DNA of 32,000 bases. It comes from Promethearchaeota archaeon. Its GTDB lineage: Archaea; Asgardarchaeota; Lokiarchaeia; Sigyniarchaeales; SOKP01. Within the stretch, counting starts at the first letter, position 1; the number at the start of each line of letters is the position of its first letter. The stretch is from contig JAUWGH010000006.1 in assembly GCA_030606485.1 (NCBI GenBank), positions 90,001 to 122,000 on the forward strand, read 5' to 3'. The notes under the pieces were generated by a model, which was given only the letters and a program-made list of their open reading frames with translations, did no database searches and was not told the origin of the DNA. Both the position numbers and the translations under genes were made by a program. Shown piece by piece: positions 1 through 8,159 of the stretch.

Positions 1-2717
1 GAATCAGCAATACCTTTTGGACCATGTGCAGTTCCGCATAAAAAGATTCCATCTGTTGCAAAATCAAAAGGTCTTAGTTTGATGTGTGCTTCAAAAAAGA
101 AACCATTTTTACCTAGAGGAACTTTTAATAACTCTGCTAATTGTTTATTTTTTTCATCGGGAATTAAGGGTGTAGATAAAACCACCTTATCCGCTTTAAT
201 GTGTAAATTAATCTGTGTTAACATATCATGAACTCTAACGGTAATTTTATCATCATTAAAATCCAGTTCAGGGTATTCTGAAAACCTAAGGTAGTTAATA
301 TCTTCTCTTGCTTTCCAATAATATTGCTCTTCTTCTGTTCCAACACGAATATCGCGATATAATACAAAAATATTTGAATTTGGATAATTTTCTTTAACAT
401 ACAATGCATGCCGTATTGATTCACTACAACAAATAAGAGAACAATAACTTCTTCCTGATTCTTGCCTAGAACCGACGCAATGAATAAACACAAGAGTTTC
501 TCCATCCGTTAATTCATTATTGCGTAATTTTTCTGATAATTCTAATTGAGTAAAAACCCTTGGATCTTTTCCATAATTGTACCAATCCGTAGGTTTATAT
601 TCTGAAGCACCAGTAGCAACAATAATTGCACCAACTCTAATTTCTGATGTGCTTTTTTCTGAATCTTCTATTTTAATCGAAAAATCTCCGATTGAGCCTT
701 TCACATCAACGATATTAGATGATAAATAAGTATTAATATTCTTTTGTTCTTTAATTTCTTTAATAAATTTTGAAATAAATTCCATAGAATCGATTCTATC
801 GAAATTTATTTTATAGATTAAATTCAATTGCCCTCCAAGTTTGTCCATTTTTTCAACTAAATGGACTTTAAATCCACTTTTTGCTATTTCTAATGCCGCA
901 CTCATACCTGCAATACCTCCACCAATGACCAAAGCTTCAGGAATTACATCTCCCTTTATTTTAAATTCCGGTTTTAAATTTCTTGCCCTTGCTATACCCA
1001 TTCTGATTAAATCTTTTGCTTTATCAGTGGCTTTTGGTTTATCTTTCATATGAACCCAAGAGTCAAGTTCTCGTATGCTCACAAAATTAAACAGATATGG
1101 ATTTAAACCTACTTCTCGTAGTGTATTTTGAAAAAGTGGTTCGTGAGTTCTTGGAGTACAAGCAGCTACAATAACTCGATTTAAATCCTCCTCAATAATC
1201 TTATCTTTGATTATTTGTTGAGTCTGTTCAGAGCAACTGTATTTGTTGTTCATAGCAAAAACCACGTTGGGGAGTGTCTTTAAATATTCAACGATTTCTT
1301 CATTATCCATATATCCTGCAATATTAACACCACAATCACATACAAAGACTCCAATTCTAGGCTCATCAAATGGAGATACATACTTTAAAGGAGGTAGTTC
1401 AATCACTCTTTCTTCCTCGGGAATTTGAACTGCATGTTGAGCAGCAAGGGAAGCTGCACCACTCGCTTTTGCTACTGAATTTGGAATATCATCAGGACTT
1501 TGACATGAACCTGTTATATATATTCCTGGAATAGTGGATTTTAAATCCTCTAAAGAATTCTCTGTTTTAAAGAATCCAAAATCATTTTGTTCAATTCCAA
1601 GAATCTTAGCTAACTCATCCGCATCTCTTCTTGGTATTACGGCATTAGCTAAAATTATCATATCAAAGATCTTTTCTTCTACCTCTCCCGTATCTAGATT
1701 TGCATATTTGACAATTAAATCCTGAGTTAATGGATCTTCTCTAATATCTCCTGGAATTCCACGATTATATTTAACTCCATATTCATCTTTTGCGCGTTCT
1801 ATAAATTCCTCTTGGTTTTTTCCAATTGTTCTTGTATCATTAAAGAAAATCGTTGGAGAAATCTCTGGAGCGTGTTCTTTTGCCACAACGGCTTCTTTTA
1901 CCATGTACATACAACAAAATTTGGAACAATAAGCGCATATATTGACATTTCTTGAGCCAACACAAGCGATAAACGCAATATTTTTAACATGTTTTCTATC
2001 AGAAGGACGTATTAACTCCCCAACTGTTGGTCCAGAAGCACACAATAAACGCTCAAATTTCATTCCTGTAATGACATTTTTATATTCTCCATAATGATAG
2101 CGTGCCAAAATACTTGGATCAATCAAATCAAATCCAGTTGCAACAATAATTGAAGCAACACTATATTCTAATACCTCATCTTTTTGTGTGAAATCTATAG
2201 CTTCTGCTCCACAAATCTTAGCACATAACGCACAAATCCCATGATTTAAATATAAGCATTTTTCCTTGTCAATTAGATAAACTGAAGGTACTGCTGAAGG
2301 AAAAGAAATATACGCTGCATGATTATATTTTAATCCTTCATCAAATTGGTTTGGAAGTCCTCTAACGGGGCAAATTGTTGCACAGTCTCCACAACCAGTA
2401 CATTTTTCTTCATTAACATAGCGTGCCTTTTTTAGAATTTTTACTGTAAAATTTCCCATTGATCCCGATACTTCAGAAACTTCTGAATATGTAAAGAGTT
2501 TAATGTTAGGGTGTCGACCAACCTCAACCATTTTGGGAGCTAAAATACAAATAGAACAATCCAATGTGGGAAAAGTCTTATCTAATTGTGCCATCCTTCC
2601 TCCAATTGTAGAATCCTTTTCTACTAATATTACCCGATATCCTTGTTCTGCTAAATCCAATGAAGCTGATATACCAGATATTCCTGCTCCAATAACTAAA
2701 ATATTACTATTTTTCAT
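1..2717 (-). CDS. hdrA: Heterodisulfide reductase subunit A-like flavoprotein with two HdrA modules; runs off the window's left edge (3' partial)
   Basis: Not in the ORF track. Manual translation from ATG at 2717 is open to the window edge. Motifs: MKNSNILVIGAGISG (FAD), DKTFPTLDCSICILAP, CTGCGDCATICP, FERLLCASGPT, CVGSR..CSKFCCMY. A second module follows: RIGVFVCDCGVNIAG, AACTPRTHE, ALVIGGGIAGMSAAL, HCVGSR..YCSLICC, FFEAHIKLRP. Overlaps the upstream gene's stop by 11 nt. Confidence 0.95.
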   Translation of the reverse strand, partial: MKNSNILVIGAGISGISASLDLAEQGYRVILVEKDSTIGGRMAQLDKTFPTLDCSICILAPKMVEVGRHPNIKLFTYSEVSEVSGSMGNFTVKILKKARYVNEEKCTGCGDCATICPVRGLPNQFDEGLKYNHAAYISFPSAVPSVYLIDKEKCLYLNHGICALCAKICGAEAIDFTQKDEVLEYSVASIIVATGFDLIDPSILARYHYGEYKNVITGMKFERLLCASGPTVGELIRPSDRKHVKNIAFIACVGSRNVNICAYCSKFCCMYMVKEAVVAKEHAPEISPTIFFNDTRTIGKNQEEFIERAKDEYGVKYNRGIPGDIREDPLTQDLIVKYANLDTGEVEEKIFDMIILANAVIPRRDADELAKILGIEQNDFGFFKTENSLEDLKSTIPGIYITGSCQSPDDIPNSVAKASGAASLAAQHAVQIPEEERVIELPPLKYVSPFDEPRIGVFVCDCGVNIAGYMDNEEIVEYLKTLPNVVFAMNNKYSCSEQTQQIIKDKIIEEDLNRVIVAACTPRTHEPLFQNTLREVGLNPYLFNFVSIRELDSWVHMKDKPKATDKAKDLIRMGIARARNLKPEFKIKGDVIPEALVIGGGIAGMSAALEIAKSGFKVHLVEKMDKLGGQLNLIYKINFDRIDSMEFISKFIKEIKEQKNINTYLSSNIVDVKGSIGDFSIKIEDSEKSTSEIRVGAIIVATGASEYKPTDWYNYGKDPRVFTQLELSEKLRNNELTDGETLVFIHCVGSRQESGRSYCSLICCSESIRHALYVKENYPNSNIFVLYRDIRVGTEEEQYYWKAREDINYLRFSEYPELDFNDDKITVRVHDMLTQINLHIKADKVVLSTPLIPDEKNKQLAELLKVPLGKNGFFFEAHIKLRPFDFATDGIFLCGTAHGPKGIAD

Positions 2718-3849
2718 TTTTTTCACCCAATTTTCCTTTTTTAGTTTTAAGAGAAGTCATTTTTCTAAACCAATTGATTTTTTTTGTTTTCCATTCAGAA
2801 ATCTCTTTTGCTGGAATATTATATTTGTCTATAAACCCTTCTGAAAGAAGAGAATTAATTAGATTTTGTCCTTCATTTGTACGTATGATTATAATAGAAT
2901 GCCCTTCTGGAGCTCCAGATGCTCCTACACTAAAATCTGAAAATCTTCCAGTAAATTCATCACATTCATGGCAATGATCTCTTACAGCTTCATCAAGTTT
3001 TTTAATATCCACTTCAAATACTTTATTTTCCCTCGAAGTAACAAAAAAATTCTTCTTTATCTGTGCTTTTAAAACATTCGCTGGTACTAATTTGGTTTCT
3101 TTTTCTATGATCTCAAATAATTTTTCATAATCAAAATTTTCGAAACAAAACAAGCCTATAACAAATCTGATACTATAAGTCGGACTTATTCTTAAATATT
3201 GCATTTTTCTAATAGCTCTACACTGACACGGAGTTCCAACAAATGCTAAAGATAAATCTTCAATATTAAGAATATCTTTTTTATTCATTATTTCTTGGGA
3301 GATTTTATTGAAATCTTTTAATGGTAAAATATTTGATGAGATGGAATAACGAGTTCCCGCGGATTTTAATAAATCTTTTTTATCATAAATGATTTTTGGT
3401 TCAGGTTTAAAATTCTCGTCATATTCCGATACAATCGCTGCGTCTATTCTATCTTGTTCAAATAAATACGTCAAAACAGTTGTAACTATTCCCCCATCTT
3501 GTCCGAGTTTCTTAATTTCTTGATCAGTCGTTTTTGCAGCAATTACAGTAATTATATGTCCCAGTTCGTCTTTAATTTGAAATTCTTCATTTATTTGATC
3601 TAATAACGGTGTTGTATTGGGGCATATATAATAGCAAATTCCGCATTCTTTACAATTATCAATATTTGCATCTGTTATGTATATAGGTTTATTACCATCC
3701 ATTTTAATAACATCAAAACCCTGACTTGTACAATAAGCAACACATGCTCCACAAGCACAACATTTATTATTATCGATGATCTCTTTTTCAAGTTCTTTAA
3801 AAGTTTTTATCTCTTTTAGCAATAAGTTCTTTGATTTAACTTCTTCCAT
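2707..3849 (-). CDS. Coenzyme F420 hydrogenase/dehydrogenase beta subunit family (FrhB/FdhB/FpoF-like) with N-terminal 2x[4Fe-4S] domain
   Basis: CCACGACVAYC and CKECGICYYICP ferredoxin motifs; GQDGGIVT, VGTPCQ, IGLFCFENF and CHECDEFTGRFSDFSVG are FrhB-family motifs. Confidence 0.9.
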   Translation of the reverse strand: MEEVKSKNLLLKEIKTFKELEKEIIDNNKCCACGACVAYCTSQGFDVIKMDGNKPIYITDANIDNCKECGICYYICPNTTPLLDQINEEFQIKDELGHIITVIAAKTTDQEIKKLGQDGGIVTTVLTYLFEQDRIDAAIVSEYDENFKPEPKIIYDKKDLLKSAGTRYSISSNILPLKDFNKISQEIMNKKDILNIEDLSLAFVGTPCQCRAIRKMQYLRISPTYSIRFVIGLFCFENFDYEKLFEIIEKETKLVPANVLKAQIKKNFFVTSRENKVFEVDIKKLDEAVRDHCHECDEFTGRFSDFSVGASGAPEGHSIIIIRTNEGQNLINSLLSEGFIDKYNIPAKEISEWKTKKINWFRKMTSLKTKKGKLGEKNEK

Positions 3850-4164
3850 AAATTTTCAATTTCGTTCCATTAATCAATTTTTTTTTTAAATTAAATCAAA
3901 TTATTTAATAGTTAATGCTAAATTAAATTAATTAAGTACTTATTTTTATACAAGATCGTTAGTAATATTTAAAATTTATTCTTTTTTTTGTAAAATTTCG
4001 ATTTTTTTAGTAATTCTTTTTCCTATTTTTGTATATAATTAATAAAAAGTATATTATTGATTGATTAAAATGAGAAAAAAAACATGATCTAATTTGATCT
4101 TTTATGATAAATTTAATGACGAGATCTAAAAATAAAATTTAAAATCCTCGACATAATTTTTAAA

Positions 4165-4224
4165 TTAATTTCAAGATTGATTTATTAATTTCAAGGTTGA
4201 TCTGTTAATTGCTAGACTGATATG
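4165..4224. repeat. Three degenerate 20-bp tandem repeats in the frhB/metV intergenic region
   Basis: TTAATTTCAAGATTGATTTA / TTAATTTCAAGGTTGATCTG / TTAATTGCTAGACTGATATG. The first two contain the palindrome TCAA-N2-TTGA. Confidence 0.75.
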
Positions 4225-4454
4225 TTTAATATTAGAATTATTAAATGTATATTATGTATGATAGAAAAATTAATTTCAAATATGACTCTTTTTTGAGTTT
4301 TTGAAATGAGATATTATTTGATCTTTTCCAAAATTGATCATGTTATTATCGTAACTTAAAATTAAAATTATCAAAAAACTTAAATTGACTATTTAATTTA
4401 CCTACATAGCTATTTAATTATAATAATAAAAAGAAAAAGAATATTGTCGTAAAT

Positions 4455-5120
4455 ATGATTGTTACAACTAAAAAAGATTTTGAAGAAATTGAAGATGCAC
4501 TAAAAAGATATAACAATATTATATTGATCTATTGTGGTACATGTTCCGTTACTGCTCAATGTTCAGATGAAAAATCTGTAAATGAAATGTTGGAACATCT
4601 CAAAAATGCAGGAAAAAACGTAGTTTATCATCAAGAGTTTAAAGAACCTTGCGATTTTAGACAAGATCTTCAAGATTGGAGGAATGTTCCACAAGAGGCC
4701 TTAGATAAAGTTGATGCATTTCTTATTTTATCTTGTGGAGCTGGTCTTCAAGCAATGCTTGATTTGTTTGATAGAAAAAACATTGTTAAGCCAATCTTTA
4801 TAGGTTTAAATACGCATGGAATTGCTGAAACTGAACGTATCGGTCGTTTTCACGTAAAATGTGCTGGTTGTGGGGATTGTTTATTAAATTACACCGGTGG
4901 AATATGTCCAGTAACCTCTTGCGCAAAAGGTCTAATGAACGGTCCTTGTGGCGGCCAGCTCGATGGCAAATGTGAAGTAGGAAACTACGAAAAGGATTGC
5001 GGGTGGATTTTAATATATGAGCGTTTGAAAAAAATTGGACGTTTGGATTTATTTAAACAGCTTAGACCTGCTTTCAATTGGACTGATAGAGGCCATCAAA
5101 AAAGTGTAGTATTTAGGTAG
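4455..5120 (+). CDS. metV: Methylenetetrahydrofolate reductase Fe-S/zinc subunit MetV (MTHFR C-terminal domain family)
   Basis: YCGTCSVTAQC, LILSCGAGLQ, CAGCGDCLLNYTGGICPVTSCAKGLMNGPCGG, CEV..DCGWILIYERLK; lies directly upstream of metF. Confidence 0.88.
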   Translation: MIVTTKKDFEEIEDALKRYNNIILIYCGTCSVTAQCSDEKSVNEMLEHLKNAGKNVVYHQEFKEPCDFRQDLQDWRNVPQEALDKVDAFLILSCGAGLQAMLDLFDRKNIVKPIFIGLNTHGIAETERIGRFHVKCAGCGDCLLNYTGGICPVTSCAKGLMNGPCGGQLDGKCEVGNYEKDCGWILIYERLKKIGRLDLFKQLRPAFNWTDRGHQKSVVFR

Positions 5121-5134
5121 GAGGTTGGAAAAAA

Positions 5135-6067
5135 ATGGCAGAAAAAAAAGTTTATTCAAAATTGGGCGAAATGTTAGCTAAAGGAGAATTTATTTTAACT
5201 GGAGAATTGGAGCCGGAAAAAACTTGCGATCTCTCTCACACAATTCAAGAAGCTAAGGAAATGGCGCCTTATGTGGTAGCTGCAAATGTAACTGATAGTC
5301 CTTTAGGGATCGTTACTATTAATTCATTGGCAGCTTCTCATATCATCCAAAAGGAAGCAAATATTGAAGTTATTTGGCAATTAACCGTTAGAGATGTTAA
5401 CAAGCTTGGCATTGCTGGCATGATCATGGGCGGACACGCTTTGGGGTTAAGAAATATCCTCTCACTCACTGGGGATCATCCTAACATGGGTGACATGCCT
5501 GAAAGCAAACCTGTTTTTGACCTTGATTCCGCAACATTATGCATGCTTGTGAGAGAAATGGTCGACAAGGGCACAATAAACGGTTACGAGATCGAATCTC
5601 CTCCAAAGTTTCATGTTGGGGCTGCTGCAAACCCCAATTCAAACCCCATGGAGGCGGAAGTCTTGAAAGTTGGGCGTAAGGTAGAGGCGGGATGCGAATT
5701 TATTCAAACCCAAGTTGCGTACGATCTCGAAAAAACAATAGAATTTCTGACCGCAATTAATAAATATAACGTTCCGGTGTTATTGGGCATCTTTCCAATG
5801 AAGTCGTACGCTATGGCAAAAGGTTTTGATACCTTTGTTCCAGGAGTTGATGTACCTAAGGACGTGCTTGCGAAATGGAAATCCATCAAAAATGATTATA
5901 AAACGGACAAAGCCAAGCAAAAAAAAATTTATGACCAAGCTAATTATGAATTTTTCAAGCCTTTCATAACCGAGCTCAAGAATAAAGATCTTTTGGGTGG
6001 CGTTCATTGTATGGCTGTTCATTATCCGCGCATCTTTCCGAAATTAATAGAAGTAATTAAAGGTTAA
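5135..6067 (+). CDS. metF: Methylenetetrahydrofolate reductase MetF (FAD TIM barrel, acetogen MetFV type)
   Basis: ANVTDSP, QLTVRDVN, LRNILSLTGDHP, KPVFDLDS, VGAAANP, KVEAGCEFIQTQ, GVHCMA; GGAGG at 5120-5124 upstream. Confidence 0.92.
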   Translation: MAEKKVYSKLGEMLAKGEFILTGELEPEKTCDLSHTIQEAKEMAPYVVAANVTDSPLGIVTINSLAASHIIQKEANIEVIWQLTVRDVNKLGIAGMIMGGHALGLRNILSLTGDHPNMGDMPESKPVFDLDSATLCMLVREMVDKGTINGYEIESPPKFHVGAAANPNSNPMEAEVLKVGRKVEAGCEFIQTQVAYDLEKTIEFLTAINKYNVPVLLGIFPMKSYAMAKGFDTFVPGVDVPKDVLAKWKSIKNDYKTDKAKQKKIYDQANYEFFKPFITELKNKDLLGGVHCMAVHYPRIFPKLIEVIKG

Positions 6068-6087: not shown

Positions 6088-6269
6088 CCTATTTCTATTT
6101 TTATCGCTCATTATGTTTTTATTTATATTAATTGAAAAAAATAGAATTTTTTTTGTTTTTAATCGATTTTTTCTGCGAAATTGAAAAAAAGTTTTATAAA
6201 TTTTACCGAATATACTATTTTGAGAAAAATAATTTATTTTATATAAATTGTAATATTCACTTAAATGAA

Positions 6270-8159
6270 ATGAAAGACTTTGATTTGGATAATTTAACTG
6301 AAACAACAAAAACCCTTTTATCGGAAGAAGATCTCCAAAAATTGGTTGCTCTCAAGAACCCAAAAGTATTGAAAATTGTAAATGAATTTGTGGATTTATG
6401 TAAACCAGCCAAAGTTAAAGTAATTACTGATAATCCAAAAGAAATTGAATATGTCCGCCAAGGTGCGCTTAGGGAGGGGGAAGAAGAAAAGTTGACTATG
6501 GAAGGTCATACAATCCATTATGATGGGTATTATGACCAAGCGAGAGATGTAGGAAATACTGCTGTATTAATACGGAAAGGAACTAAATTAAGTAAAGTAA
6601 TTAATACAAAAAGCAGGGAAGAAGGTTTAAATGAAATATTTCAAATTATGGATGGTGTGATGAGAGGTAAGGAAGTTCTTGTCCGTTTTTTTTGTCTTGG
6701 TCCAACAAATTCTCGTTTTTCAATATCTGCTCTCCAATTAACAGATTCATTTTATGTTGCTCATTCTGAAGATCTCTTATATAGAACAGGATATAAAGAG
6801 TTTAAACGTCTTAAAGGATCTGAAGATTTCTTTTATTTTATTCACTCTGCGGGACCATTAGAAAAAAATGTTTCAAAAAATATTGATGATAGAAGAATCT
6901 ATATTGACTTAAAAGAAAGTCGTGTTTTATCTGTAAATAATCAATATGCAGGTAATAGTATAGGTTTGAAGAAGTTAGCATTACGACTTGGAATATATAA
7001 AGCAAATCATGAGGAATGGTTAACAGAGCATATGTTTATTATGGGTGTAAAACCAGAAGGTAAAAATCGCGTAACTTATTTTACAGGAGCTTATCCAAGT
7101 GCATGCGGGAAAACATCTACTGCAATGATTCCCGGTCAACAAATTGTTGGAGATGATATTGCTTACCTTAGAGAAGATAATGAAGGATATGCTCGTGCAG
7201 TCAATATAGAGTCAGGAATTTTCGGAATTATAAGAGATGTTAATGAGATTGATGATCCATTAATTTTTAAAGCTTTAACATCACCTAGAGAGTTAATTTT
7301 TTCTAATGTATTAATTAAAGATGGAAAACCTTTTTGGCTCGGTGATGGACGAGAACCATTAAAATCGGGAATTAATCACTCTGGTGAATGGTTTGAAGGA
7401 AAGAAAGATAAAGAAGGAAATAAAATCCCTCTTGCACATCCGAACGCTCGTTATACAATGAGAATAAAAGAACTTGAAAATTTTGATCCAGCATTAAATG
7501 ATCCGGACGGAATCAGAGTGAGCGGAATTTTATATGGAGGTAGAGATTCAGATACTTCGATACCAATTCTTGAAAGTCTTAATTGGGAGCATGGAGTATT
7601 TTTTGGCGCAATTATTGAGTCCGAATCTACTTCTGCAACTCTTGGTAAGGTTGGGGTAAGAAAAGCGAGTCCGATGGCTAACTTAGATTTTATGGTTATT
7701 CCTTTAGGGTTATACCTTGATAATCATCGAAAATTTGGAAATCAATTAACTCATTGTCCAAAAATTTTTGCCACAAATTATTTCTTAAAAAAGGACGGTA
7801 AATATTGTAATGGAATGCTTGATAAGAAAATTTGGGTTTTATGGGCAGAAGGAAGGAGTCATGGTGAATTTAATGCAATAAAAACACCCATAGGATTTAT
7901 TCCAAAATATGAAGATTTAAAAGAACTCTTCCGAACTGTTCTAAATCAAAATTATAAAGAAGAAGATTACAATTTTCAATTTTCAATTCGCGTTTCTAAA
8001 TGGTTAGAGAAATATGATCGAATGGAGAAGATGTATCAAGAAGAAATTGAAATTCCTAAATTTTTCTGGATATGGTTAAAATCCCAAAAAAAAGAAATTC
8101 TTGATGCAAAGCAGAAATTTAATTTGAACATTATTCCGCCAGATTACTTTTCTAATTAA
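6270..8159 (+). CDS. pckG: Phosphoenolpyruvate carboxykinase (GTP)
   Basis: YAGNSIGLKKLALR, WLTEHM, GAYPSACGKTSTAM, IVGDDIA, AHPNARYT, GILYGGRD, TNYFLK. I prefer ATG 6270 to the track's TTG 6132 because the extension is low-complexity AT-rich sequence. Confidence 0.95.
   Translation: MKDFDLDNLTETTKTLLSEEDLQKLVALKNPKVLKIVNEFVDLCKPAKVKVITDNPKEIEYVRQGALREGEEEKLTMEGHTIHYDGYYDQARDVGNTAVLIRKGTKLSKVINTKSREEGLNEIFQIMDGVMRGKEVLVRFFCLGPTNSRFSISALQLTDSFYVAHSEDLLYRTGYKEFKRLKGSEDFFYFIHSAGPLEKNVSKNIDDRRIYIDLKESRVLSVNNQYAGNSIGLKKLALRLGIYKANHEEWLTEHMFIMGVKPEGKNRVTYFTGAYPSACGKTSTAMIPGQQIVGDDIAYLREDNEGYARAVNIESGIFGIIRDVNEIDDPLIFKALTSPRELIFSNVLIKDGKPFWLGDGREPLKSGINHSGEWFEGKKDKEGNKIPLAHPNARYTMRIKELENFDPALNDPDGIRVSGILYGGRDSDTSIPILESLNWEHGVFFGAIIESESTSATLGKVGVRKASPMANLDFMVIPLGLYLDNHRKFGNQLTHCPKIFATNYFLKKDGKYCNGMLDKKIWVLWAEGRSHGEFNAIKTPIGFIPKYEDLKELFRTVLNQNYKEEDYNFQFSIRVSKWLEKYDRMEKMYQEEIEIPKFFWIWLKSQKKEILDAKQKFNLNIIPPDYFSN

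Follow-up and report, generated by a model that had tools for sequence, protein, structure and literature searches.

An frhB-like gene at the head of an Hdr-type MetVF operon in an Asgard archaeon: a candidate F420-linked methylene-tetrahydropterin reductase

Gene arrangement at the locus

The sequence analysed is a stretch of 32,000 nucleotides (nt) from a Promethearchaeota archaeon of the Sigyniarchaeales (contig JAUWGH010000006.1; G000:C4:90001-122000, where G000 is the source genome and C-numbers are its contigs), here called the window. An frhB-like gene and hdrA lie at its start on the minus strand, and a metV-metF pair diverges from them. The locus is best explained as an Asgard version of the Hdr-type methylene-tetrahydropterin reductase, to which a plug-in flavo-iron-sulfur subunit of the FrhB family was added in the window's genus and one further lineage. 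The gene calls for the frhB-like gene, hdrA, metV1 and metF1 agree with the open reading frames (ORFs) and with Pfam matches. The 14 kb upstream of the window were read as L009, and the features under discussion are the following.

1..2717, minus strand: hdrA, 5′ 905 codons in the window, with two flavin adenine dinucleotide (FAD)/Rossmann modules; the rest of the gene lies beyond the window start
2707..3849, minus strand: frhB-like gene, 380 amino acids (aa), the first gene of the operon; Pfam FrhB_FdhB_N, E 1.8e-21, and FrhB_FdhB_C, E 1.7e-36
3850..4454, no strand: divergent AT-rich intergenic region of 605 bp, GC content about 17% (0.16-0.19) vs about 0.30-0.40 in the flanking genes
4455..5120, plus strand: metV1, the divergent copy, 221 aa; DUF5981, E 3.6e-32, C-terminal Cys cluster conserved
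5135..6067, plus strand: metF1, the divergent copy, 310 aa; MTHFR, E 2.6e-31
Beyond the window start, minus strand: hdrC, 184 aa, co-directional with hdrA
Beyond the window start, minus strand: hdrB, 295 aa, both CCG motifs complete
L009:10102-11731, co-directional with hdrA: metV2-metF2 pair, 231 aa and 310 aa
After metF2, co-directional with hdrA: asnC/Lrp-type regulator gene

The minus-strand order is frhB-like gene, hdrA(double)-mvhD fusion, hdrC, hdrB, metV2, metF2 and the asnC-type gene, the last five being outside the window at G000:C4:85606-89272. The full hdrA (L009:13274-16726) encodes 1147 aa from the ATG at 2717 or 1150 aa from the upstream GTG at 2726. Thus hdrA, hdrB, hdrC and mvhD are clustered with metVF and all are co-directional; the genes are separated by 1-nt gaps or overlap, with the exception of hdrB-metV2 (99 nt) and metF2-asnC (34 nt). 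Because mvhD, hdrC, hdrB and metV2-metF2 continue the frhB-hdrA arm, the locus represents a full Hdr-MetVF cluster of the Moorella/Sporomusa type, headed by frhB. It is very likely an Hdr-type MetVF operon in which FrhB is a co-expressed subunit.

Each of the two metV-metF pairs consists of adjacent genes with DUF5981 and MTHFR matches. MetV1 and MetV2 are 40% identical and MetF1 and MetF2 47%, and these two metF genes are the only MTHFR-family genes in the genome.

A preliminary description made from the window sequence had reported an 11-nt overlap between an frhB-like gene and a double-module hdrA, a 605-bp AT-rich gap and a divergent metV-metF pair, and the ORFs, Pfam matches and GC content agree with it. 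Its suggestion that an FrhB-family module is linked to HdrA and MetVF also holds, in that the same operon continues to metV2-metF2, and the genes that it proposed to look for after hdrA are there (mvhD, as a fused domain, hdrC and hdrB); the second metV-metF pair and the AsnC-type regulator come after them.

The overlap of frhB and hdrA is 11 nt if hdrA starts at the ATG at 2717 (the frhB stop codon is the TAG at 2709-2707) and 20 nt if it starts at the GTG at 2726. At positions 2728-2730, codon 374 of frhB, the sequence is TTG in G000 and the stop codon TAG in G002 and G003, two members of the same genus. The change from TAG to TTG adds seven residues to the G000 protein and produces the 11-nt overlap with hdrA. 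That frhB is a pseudogene in G002 and G003 was considered and ruled out, the in-frame TAG at codon 374 being a natural stop.

The hdrA/frhB junction and the junctions from frhB across the gap to metV1-metF1 are bridged by metagenome contigs of an independent study; therefore, the arrangement is not an assembly artefact. Metagenomes of cold seeps and marine sediments, from eight studies, contain nearly identical DNA. One metatranscriptome contig of 514 nt crosses the frhB/hdrA junction, which is a weak hint of transcription; the same run showed nothing elsewhere at the locus. The other two of the three "RNA" runs probably represent DNA and have thin coverage of the locus, and the contigs give no levels, strand or operon continuity.

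Distribution among Asgard archaea

A scan with one genome per species gave 454 MetF relatives, of which the closest 80 were kept; all are from Asgard metagenome-assembled genomes, and the counts over 80 loci refer to these best 80 of 454. metV2 adjoins metF in 79 loci and asnC lies downstream in 76. hdrA-mvhD is found upstream in 75, the remaining five loci being cut by contig ends, and the Hdr-MetVF core can thus be considered standard in the Asgard group. Two arrangements are seen. Type I (46/80) has the order hdrA-mvhD, hdrC, hdrB, metV, metF, and type II (29/80) has hdrC, hdrB and a split hdrA, followed by a double hdrA-mvhD, metV and metF. The other pair, metVF1, is divergent from the operon in the genus of the window only; other genomes have it downstream in the same direction, or on a separate contig. 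In many genomes the distance from MetVF1 to the Hdr-MetVF2 cluster is no more than 5-10 kb.

The operon frhB is present in three genomes of the genus (G000, G002 and G003), and an orthologue of 58% identity is encoded somewhere in the genome of G004 (69% complete), the fifth member of the genus to be sampled. A metagenome scan added two further cases, L128 from the same genus and L129 (together with L125). L129 and L125 represent a different lineage, in which FrhB is 69-71% and HdrA 74% identical, with the same order frhB-hdrA/mvhD-hdrC-hdrB-metV-metF; the frhB-hdrA gap in L129 is 21 nt vs the 11-nt overlap in G000. The gene is intact and 93-98% conserved in four assemblies.

The HdrA and FrhB-like proteins

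HdrA is a tandem "double" protein with GxGxxG motifs at residues 13 and 602, one for each FAD module, and a C-terminal MvhD/FlpD domain (FlpD at 1020-1142, E 6.5e-53). The sequence matches the solved chains 5ODC_A (HdrA) and 5ODC_D (MvhD), and its scores are below the NCBIfam equivalog cut-offs (HdrA2, 887.6 of 1100 bits; HdrA, 687.4 of 1400). Module 1 begins at the FAD domain, with the N-terminal domain absent; it has the cysteines of the inserted ferredoxin domain as well as C57/C60, which, as read from the sequence, are at the position expected for the Cys197 equivalent. Module 2 has the N-domain cysteines 463, 465, 498 and 523 and a C-terminal 2x[4Fe-4S] region, and is without the inserted ferredoxin domain and without a cysteine at the Cys197 position. 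HdrA thus appears, from its motifs, to be a fused double protein with complementary loss of the N-terminal domain and of the Cys197 equivalent. The same complementary pattern has been described for Moorella HdrA and for HdrA3/4 of ANME archaea (PMC9012536).

The FrhB-like protein consists of an N-terminal 2x[4Fe-4S] ferredoxin domain, a domain of the F420-reductase type (one [4Fe-4S] cluster and flavin) and a C-terminal helix. The FrhB_FdhB_N/C domains carry the [4Fe-4S] cysteines C208, C235, C293 and C296, which are invariant in 40 orthologues. Its closest solved relatives by sequence are 8RJA_E (E 7.7e-50) and 8RIU_B (E 9.2e-42). The predicted structure (mean pLDDT confidence 79.7) also has 8RJA_E as best fold match, with template modelling (TM) scores of 0.75/0.80, followed by 8RIU_B and then by Frh and Fsr chains, and the model thus suggests the fold of the solved F420-dependent members. 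Every one of the best 14 structural matches is either a subunit of an F420-dependent enzyme or an FdhB-type subunit. The two nearest proteins, FwdI and ACDS-zeta, have measured F420-reductase activity and are attached to enzymes that elsewhere use ferredoxin (PMC11493965).

CofH (453 bits), CofD (314.6 bits) and F420-dependent Mtd (362.3 bits) are encoded in G000 above curated cut-offs (CofC and CofE were not searched); because of these genes, the organism very likely makes and uses F420. F420 is also, on balance, the probable cofactor of the FrhB-like subunit. The F420 input of the preliminary description is therefore plausible, given CofH, CofD, Mtd and the F420-reductase modules that are the nearest solved relatives, with the cofactor itself inferred. 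The genome has 12 genes of the FrhB family. A recent duplication of a genomic paralogue was ruled out as source of the operon frhB, as the other 11 are at most 33% identical to it.

Complex prediction for the FrhB-like protein and HdrA residues 590-1150, a construct that omitted the N-type domain (residues ~450-590), gave a score of 0.27 (mark 0.32). In the Elp-Hdr structure, the FdhB-like subunit is in contact with the domain of this N-terminal type on HdrA (PMC12350162).

Origin of frhB

The FrhB-like protein is part of an orthogroup that spans the Asgard archaea (52-71% identity) and whose members adjoin hdrA in nearly every examined locus with enough flank. Two patterns prevail, hdrC-hdrB-frhB-hdrA(N)-hdrA(C)-mvhD (pattern A) and hdrA(double)-mvhD-frhB (pattern B). 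G002 and G003 have a second frhB copy in pattern A beside the operon copy, 65% identical to it, and in G000 the operon frhB is the sole member of the orthogroup. A second hdr cluster of G000 (G000:C7:5691-18328, L041), with hdrC, hdrB, hdrA-N, hdrA-C/mvhD and hdrA(double), corresponds to pattern A of the relatives. Here frhB is absent between hdrB and hdrA-N, where ~50 bp are left and where the orthologous cluster of G002 has the gene; an frhB paralogue of 32% identity is found 3 kb downstream. In the metagenome contigs L126 and L130, hdrA(double)-mvhD-frhB is followed by another hdrA, whose N-terminus is 63-69% identical to that of the MetVF-linked HdrA. This may be a third arrangement that ties frhB to type I hdrA; the contigs end before any metVF position.

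In the phylogenetic tree, a single clade unites the six operon-linked FrhBs (SH-aLRT 89, not starred). Both in L129 and in G000 frhB is placed between the upstream promoter region and hdrA, and in frhB-less type I loci the divergent Ras-like GTPase gene, which is also the upstream neighbour in L129, directly abuts hdrA. From these sequences, frhB would either be ancestral in type I operons with many losses, or have moved between lineages into the same position.

Comparison of G000 with G001, a genus member without the operon gene, shows that the hdrA beside the frhB indel has 77-88% nucleotide identity within flanks of 94-99%, and therefore frhB and hdrA differ as one unit within the genus. 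There is a second recombination tract, at L124 2980-4380 (G000:C4:87980-89380), where hdrB-hdrC show 75-84% DNA identity between G000 and G003 and the rest 94-100%.

The intergenic region

The 605-bp region presumably holds the promoters of both arms. Its mean column identity among G000, G003 and the frhB-less G001 is 97%, until ~30 nt before the first start codon. An 18-nt direct repeat, GATCTAATTTGATCTTTT, is found at 4086-4103 and 4310-4327, the second copy having two differences, and an exact 13-nt repeat at 4162-4174 and 4267-4279. G001 and G003 conserve both repeats, which are candidate binding sites for the AsnC-type regulator encoded after metF2.

The C1 carrier and energetics

The G000 genome encodes Mch, Mtd, CdhC of CO dehydrogenase/acetyl-CoA synthase (CODH/ACS) and FolD. 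No Mer was found above the cut-off in the genome (best match 148 vs 348.7 bits), and Fhs was not found there. An archaeal MetF clade (Asgard, Bathyarchaeia, ANME-1 and Ca. Syntrophoarchaeum) that occurs with MetV in Mer-less genomes has been discussed as a possible replacement of Mer, perhaps on tetrahydromethanopterin (H4MPT; PMC9012536). The gene set of G000 fits an archaeal MetF that stands in for Mer and not a plain bacterial tetrahydrofolate (H4F) enzyme. The preliminary description had called this MetFV a "bacterial-type THF" enzyme, which is not supported, as the H4MPT branch (Mch and Mtd) is present and Mer and Fhs were not found, though FolD is present.

The carrier decides the mechanism. 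Textbook potentials are about -200 mV for methylene-H4F, about -340 mV for F420H2 and about -320 mV for methylene-H4MPT. With methylene-H4F, at about -200 vs -340 mV, bifurcation to ferredoxin driven by F420H2 is possible and would parallel the proposal made for NADH in Moorella; if the carrier is H4MPT, the complex would be a wired Mer substitute. The two paralogous MetVF pairs could reflect two carriers.

Comparison with known systems

In Moorella thermoacetica and Sporomusa ovata, the Hdr-type methylene-THF reductase is the complex MetFV-HdrABC-MvhD (Mock et al., 2014, cited via PMC9012536; Kremp, Roth and Muller, 2022, PMC9430772). The Asgard locus shares with it the same six protein parts in one cluster, the fused double HdrA with complementary domain loss, and adjacent MetV and MetF. 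It differs in being archaeal, in the fusion of MvhD to HdrA, in the order hdrA-C-B-metV-F and in the added FrhB-family first gene. The C1 carrier may also differ, i.e. may be H4MPT, and the cytochromes or membrane link proposed for Sporomusa have no counterpart here. Of the archaeal systems, Ca. Syntrophoarchaeum has a MetF-MetV of the archaeal kind in clusters with HdrA and MvhD (PMC9012536). No FrhB was found described for the Asgard, Bathyarchaeia, ANME-1 and Ca. Syntrophoarchaeum clusters in that paper, whereas HdrB, HdrC and FrhB are all present in the locus considered here.

A precedent for electron input is the Elp-Hdr complex of Methanothermobacter marburgensis (PDB 8RVU), in which an FdhB-like subunit oxidises F420H2 and the electrons then pass to the HdrA N-domain clusters and MvhD and on to the bifurcating FAD (PMC12350162). 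The likeness lies in a flavoprotein of the FdhB/FrhB family that feeds HdrABC from F420H2, a role that is proposed for the Asgard protein. Elp-Hdr contains ElpA, a truncated FdhA, but the operon here has no FdhA-like gene; the acceptors there are CoM-S-S-CoB and ferredoxin, and here MetVF. In addition, ElpB (8RVU_E) matches the FrhB-like protein weakly (E 6.1e-17), and the latter has the N-terminal ferredoxin domain. The architecture of the FrhB-like protein, with its N-terminal 2x[4Fe-4S] anchor followed by an F420-reductase domain and then a C-terminal extension, is shared by FwdI and ACDS-zeta from Ca. Ethanoperedens thermophilum (PDB 8RJA and 8RIU; PMC11493965). These two proteins are 27-31% identical to the FrhB-like protein, their hosts are Fwd and CODH rather than Hdr-MetVF, and the direction there is F420 reduction.

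The preliminary description knew of no characterised hybrid of this kind. Coupling of F420H2 to Hdr via an FdhB-like subunit is known from Elp-Hdr (PMC12350162), and none was found for MetVF. In the literature searched, no description of an Asgard Hdr-MetVF or of an FrhB-MetVF system was found, which does not imply its absence elsewhere, and a PDB search gave neither a MetV structure nor one for an Hdr-MetVF complex.

A proposed electron path and its alternatives

The overall proposal, which we somewhat favour, is that F420(H2) enters via FrhB into HdrA-MvhD and that the electrons reach MetVF. The hydride of F420H2 would be transferred to the flavin of the FrhB-like protein, and electrons would then pass via its [4Fe-4S] cluster and the two clusters of the N-terminal ferredoxin domain. 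From there they would reach module 2 of HdrA, at its N-domain cluster, and the [2Fe-2S] cluster of the fused MvhD, as in Elp-Hdr, and then to the HdrA flavin. One branch would lead through HdrC/HdrB and/or MetV to the MetF flavin and the methylene-pterin. A possible second branch would lead to ferredoxin by way of the ferredoxin domain inserted in module 1, i.e. bifurcation, and the reverse direction would be a confurcation that yields F420H2. True bifurcation to ferredoxin is conceivable, with the balance somewhat against it. The full statement, that the operon encodes an F420H2-dependent, ferredoxin-reducing, bifurcating methylene-tetrahydropterin reductase (2 F420H2 + methylene-pterin + oxidised ferredoxin → 2 F420 + methyl-pterin + reduced ferredoxin), is more doubtful still and is put forward tentatively.

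Several observations weigh against a dedicated F420-linked enzyme. Of the 64 species-level loci in which the position immediately upstream of the MetVF-linked hdrA is visible, one has an frhB orthologue there, that of the window's own genus, and G001 (same genus, 100% complete) has no operon frhB and no orthologue at E<=1e-90; hence FrhB is dispensable for the core enzyme. The preliminary description had asked whether the adjacency recurs: the Hdr-MetVF core does so, and the frhB position does not, apart from one metagenomic lineage, so that the uniqueness that it named as a refutation is nearly the case for frhB and not for Hdr-MetVF. The frhB-linked HdrAs are not one clade in the tree, where the genus, including G001, forms one starred clade and L129/L125 lie elsewhere. 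The FrhB-like protein also misses every NCBIfam equivalog cut-off (FrhB, 177.8 of 331.5 bits; FpoF, 136.8 of 475), and neither its score nor its partners are those of FrhB proper or FpoF. As no FrhA, the large subunit of the F420-reducing hydrogenase, was found above cut-off in the genome (best 149.7 of 392.5 bits), it is not a hydrogenase subunit. The FrhB fold family includes a member that does not use F420, the ferredoxin-dependent HCAR (5DQR), which is a weaker structural match (ranks 15-20, 16-18% identity, TM about 0.55). Finally, with methylene-H4MPT at about -320 mV, bifurcation from F420H2 to ferredoxin is not feasible.

The last point belongs to a simpler scheme, in which FrhB takes electrons from F420H2, the Fe-S chain of Hdr, MvhD and MetV wires them to MetF, methylene-H4MPT is reduced without bifurcation, and HdrBC are separate or vestigial. 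The missing Mer, the presence of Mch, F420-dependent Mtd and CODH/ACS, the location of both genomic MetF genes at this locus and the proposal of the archaeal MetF clade as a Mer substitute on H4MPT (PMC9012536) all favour it, together with the nearly isoenergetic F420/H4MPT couple. An asymmetric 1150-aa double HdrA with an inserted ferredoxin domain and a two-CCG HdrB, both kept in 46 type I loci, would however be costly for a wire, and most relatives, being without operon frhB, would need another donor. We regard this scheme as rather unlikely. It is unlikely, too, that FrhB is no dedicated MetVF subunit and is instead a general HdrA-associated module or a recombination passenger, the G000 operon working like those of frhB-less relatives. 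Most members of the orthogroup do reside in other hdr clusters without metVF, where G002 and G003 retain a copy and the C7 cluster of G000 has lost it; the presence of frhB varies within the genus, and the locus is a recombination mosaic. Yet the insertion point is the same in two lineages whose FrhBs are one clade, the spacing is tight in both G000 and L129, the gene has stayed intact and conserved across four assemblies, and in G000 it is the only member of its orthogroup.

Still less probable is a partner other than F420, either ferredoxin, as in HCAR, or NAD(P)H, which would make the operon an Hdr-MetVF with a different input. The failed FrhB and FpoF cut-offs, the membership of HCAR in the fold, the lack of an F420-reducing hydrogenase large subunit above cut-off and the room for new functions among 12 paralogues can be cited for it, but HCAR ranks below 14 matches that are all F420-dependent-enzyme or FdhB-type subunits, and the genome has F420 biosynthesis genes and an F420-dependent Mtd. 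The preliminary description had the divergent MetVF1 as the partner of FrhB-HdrA. In such a case FrhB-HdrA would mainly serve a folate-specific MetV1-MetF1 reductase, co-regulated via the shared intergenic region. The 97% conservation of that region in the genus, a plausible folate pool with FolD, and the proximity of MetVF1 to Hdr-MetVF2 in many genomes agree with this, but MetVF2 is inside the operon with a link kept in 79/80 loci, the divergent placement is confined to this genus, and Fhs was not found. This partnership is decidedly improbable and MetVF2, in the operon, the likelier partner; metV1-metF1 is a paralogous reductase and probably not the primary partner, with shared regulation possible.

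Neighbouring genes and other loci

One further gene of the window is a conserved neighbour and is probably outside the Hdr-MetVF system.

6132..8159, plus strand: GTP-dependent phosphoenolpyruvate carboxykinase (PEPCK), by family match

In many type I loci PEPCK is found 1-3 kb from the hdrA end, upstream of hdrA, and a divergent gene for a Ras/Arf-like small GTPase often lies between the two (L073:3089-3760, L129:4182-4874). Elsewhere in the genome, at G000:C5:253268-256190, the gene for a [NiFe]-hydrogenase large subunit precedes a short piece that resembles the FrhA C-terminus and has an in-frame TGA, with hdrC and hdrB directly after it; the short piece may be a VhuU-like selenocysteine peptide. 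At G000:C8:109658-114499 there is an open frame of 918 codons with an FrhB_FdhB_C domain, ~3.5 kb from the F420-dependent Mtd gene.

Significance

The electron donor of Hdr-type methylene-THF reductases has been an open question since the Moorella complex, and the operon gives a hypothesis that can be assayed. The methylene/methyl-pterin step in Mer-less archaea (Asgard, Bathyarchaeia and ANME-1) is likewise an open question (PMC9012536). If the reading as an F420H2-dependent, bifurcating enzyme is true, this would be the first Hdr-type methylene-THF reductase with a physiological donor that is evident from the operon, and the frhB-plus and frhB-minus strains within the genus would provide a natural, built-in control. 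The Asgard Wood-Ljungdahl pathway would, in that case, gain an energy-saving step; for Asgard energy metabolism, and through it for models of the eukaryotic host, the implications are indirect.

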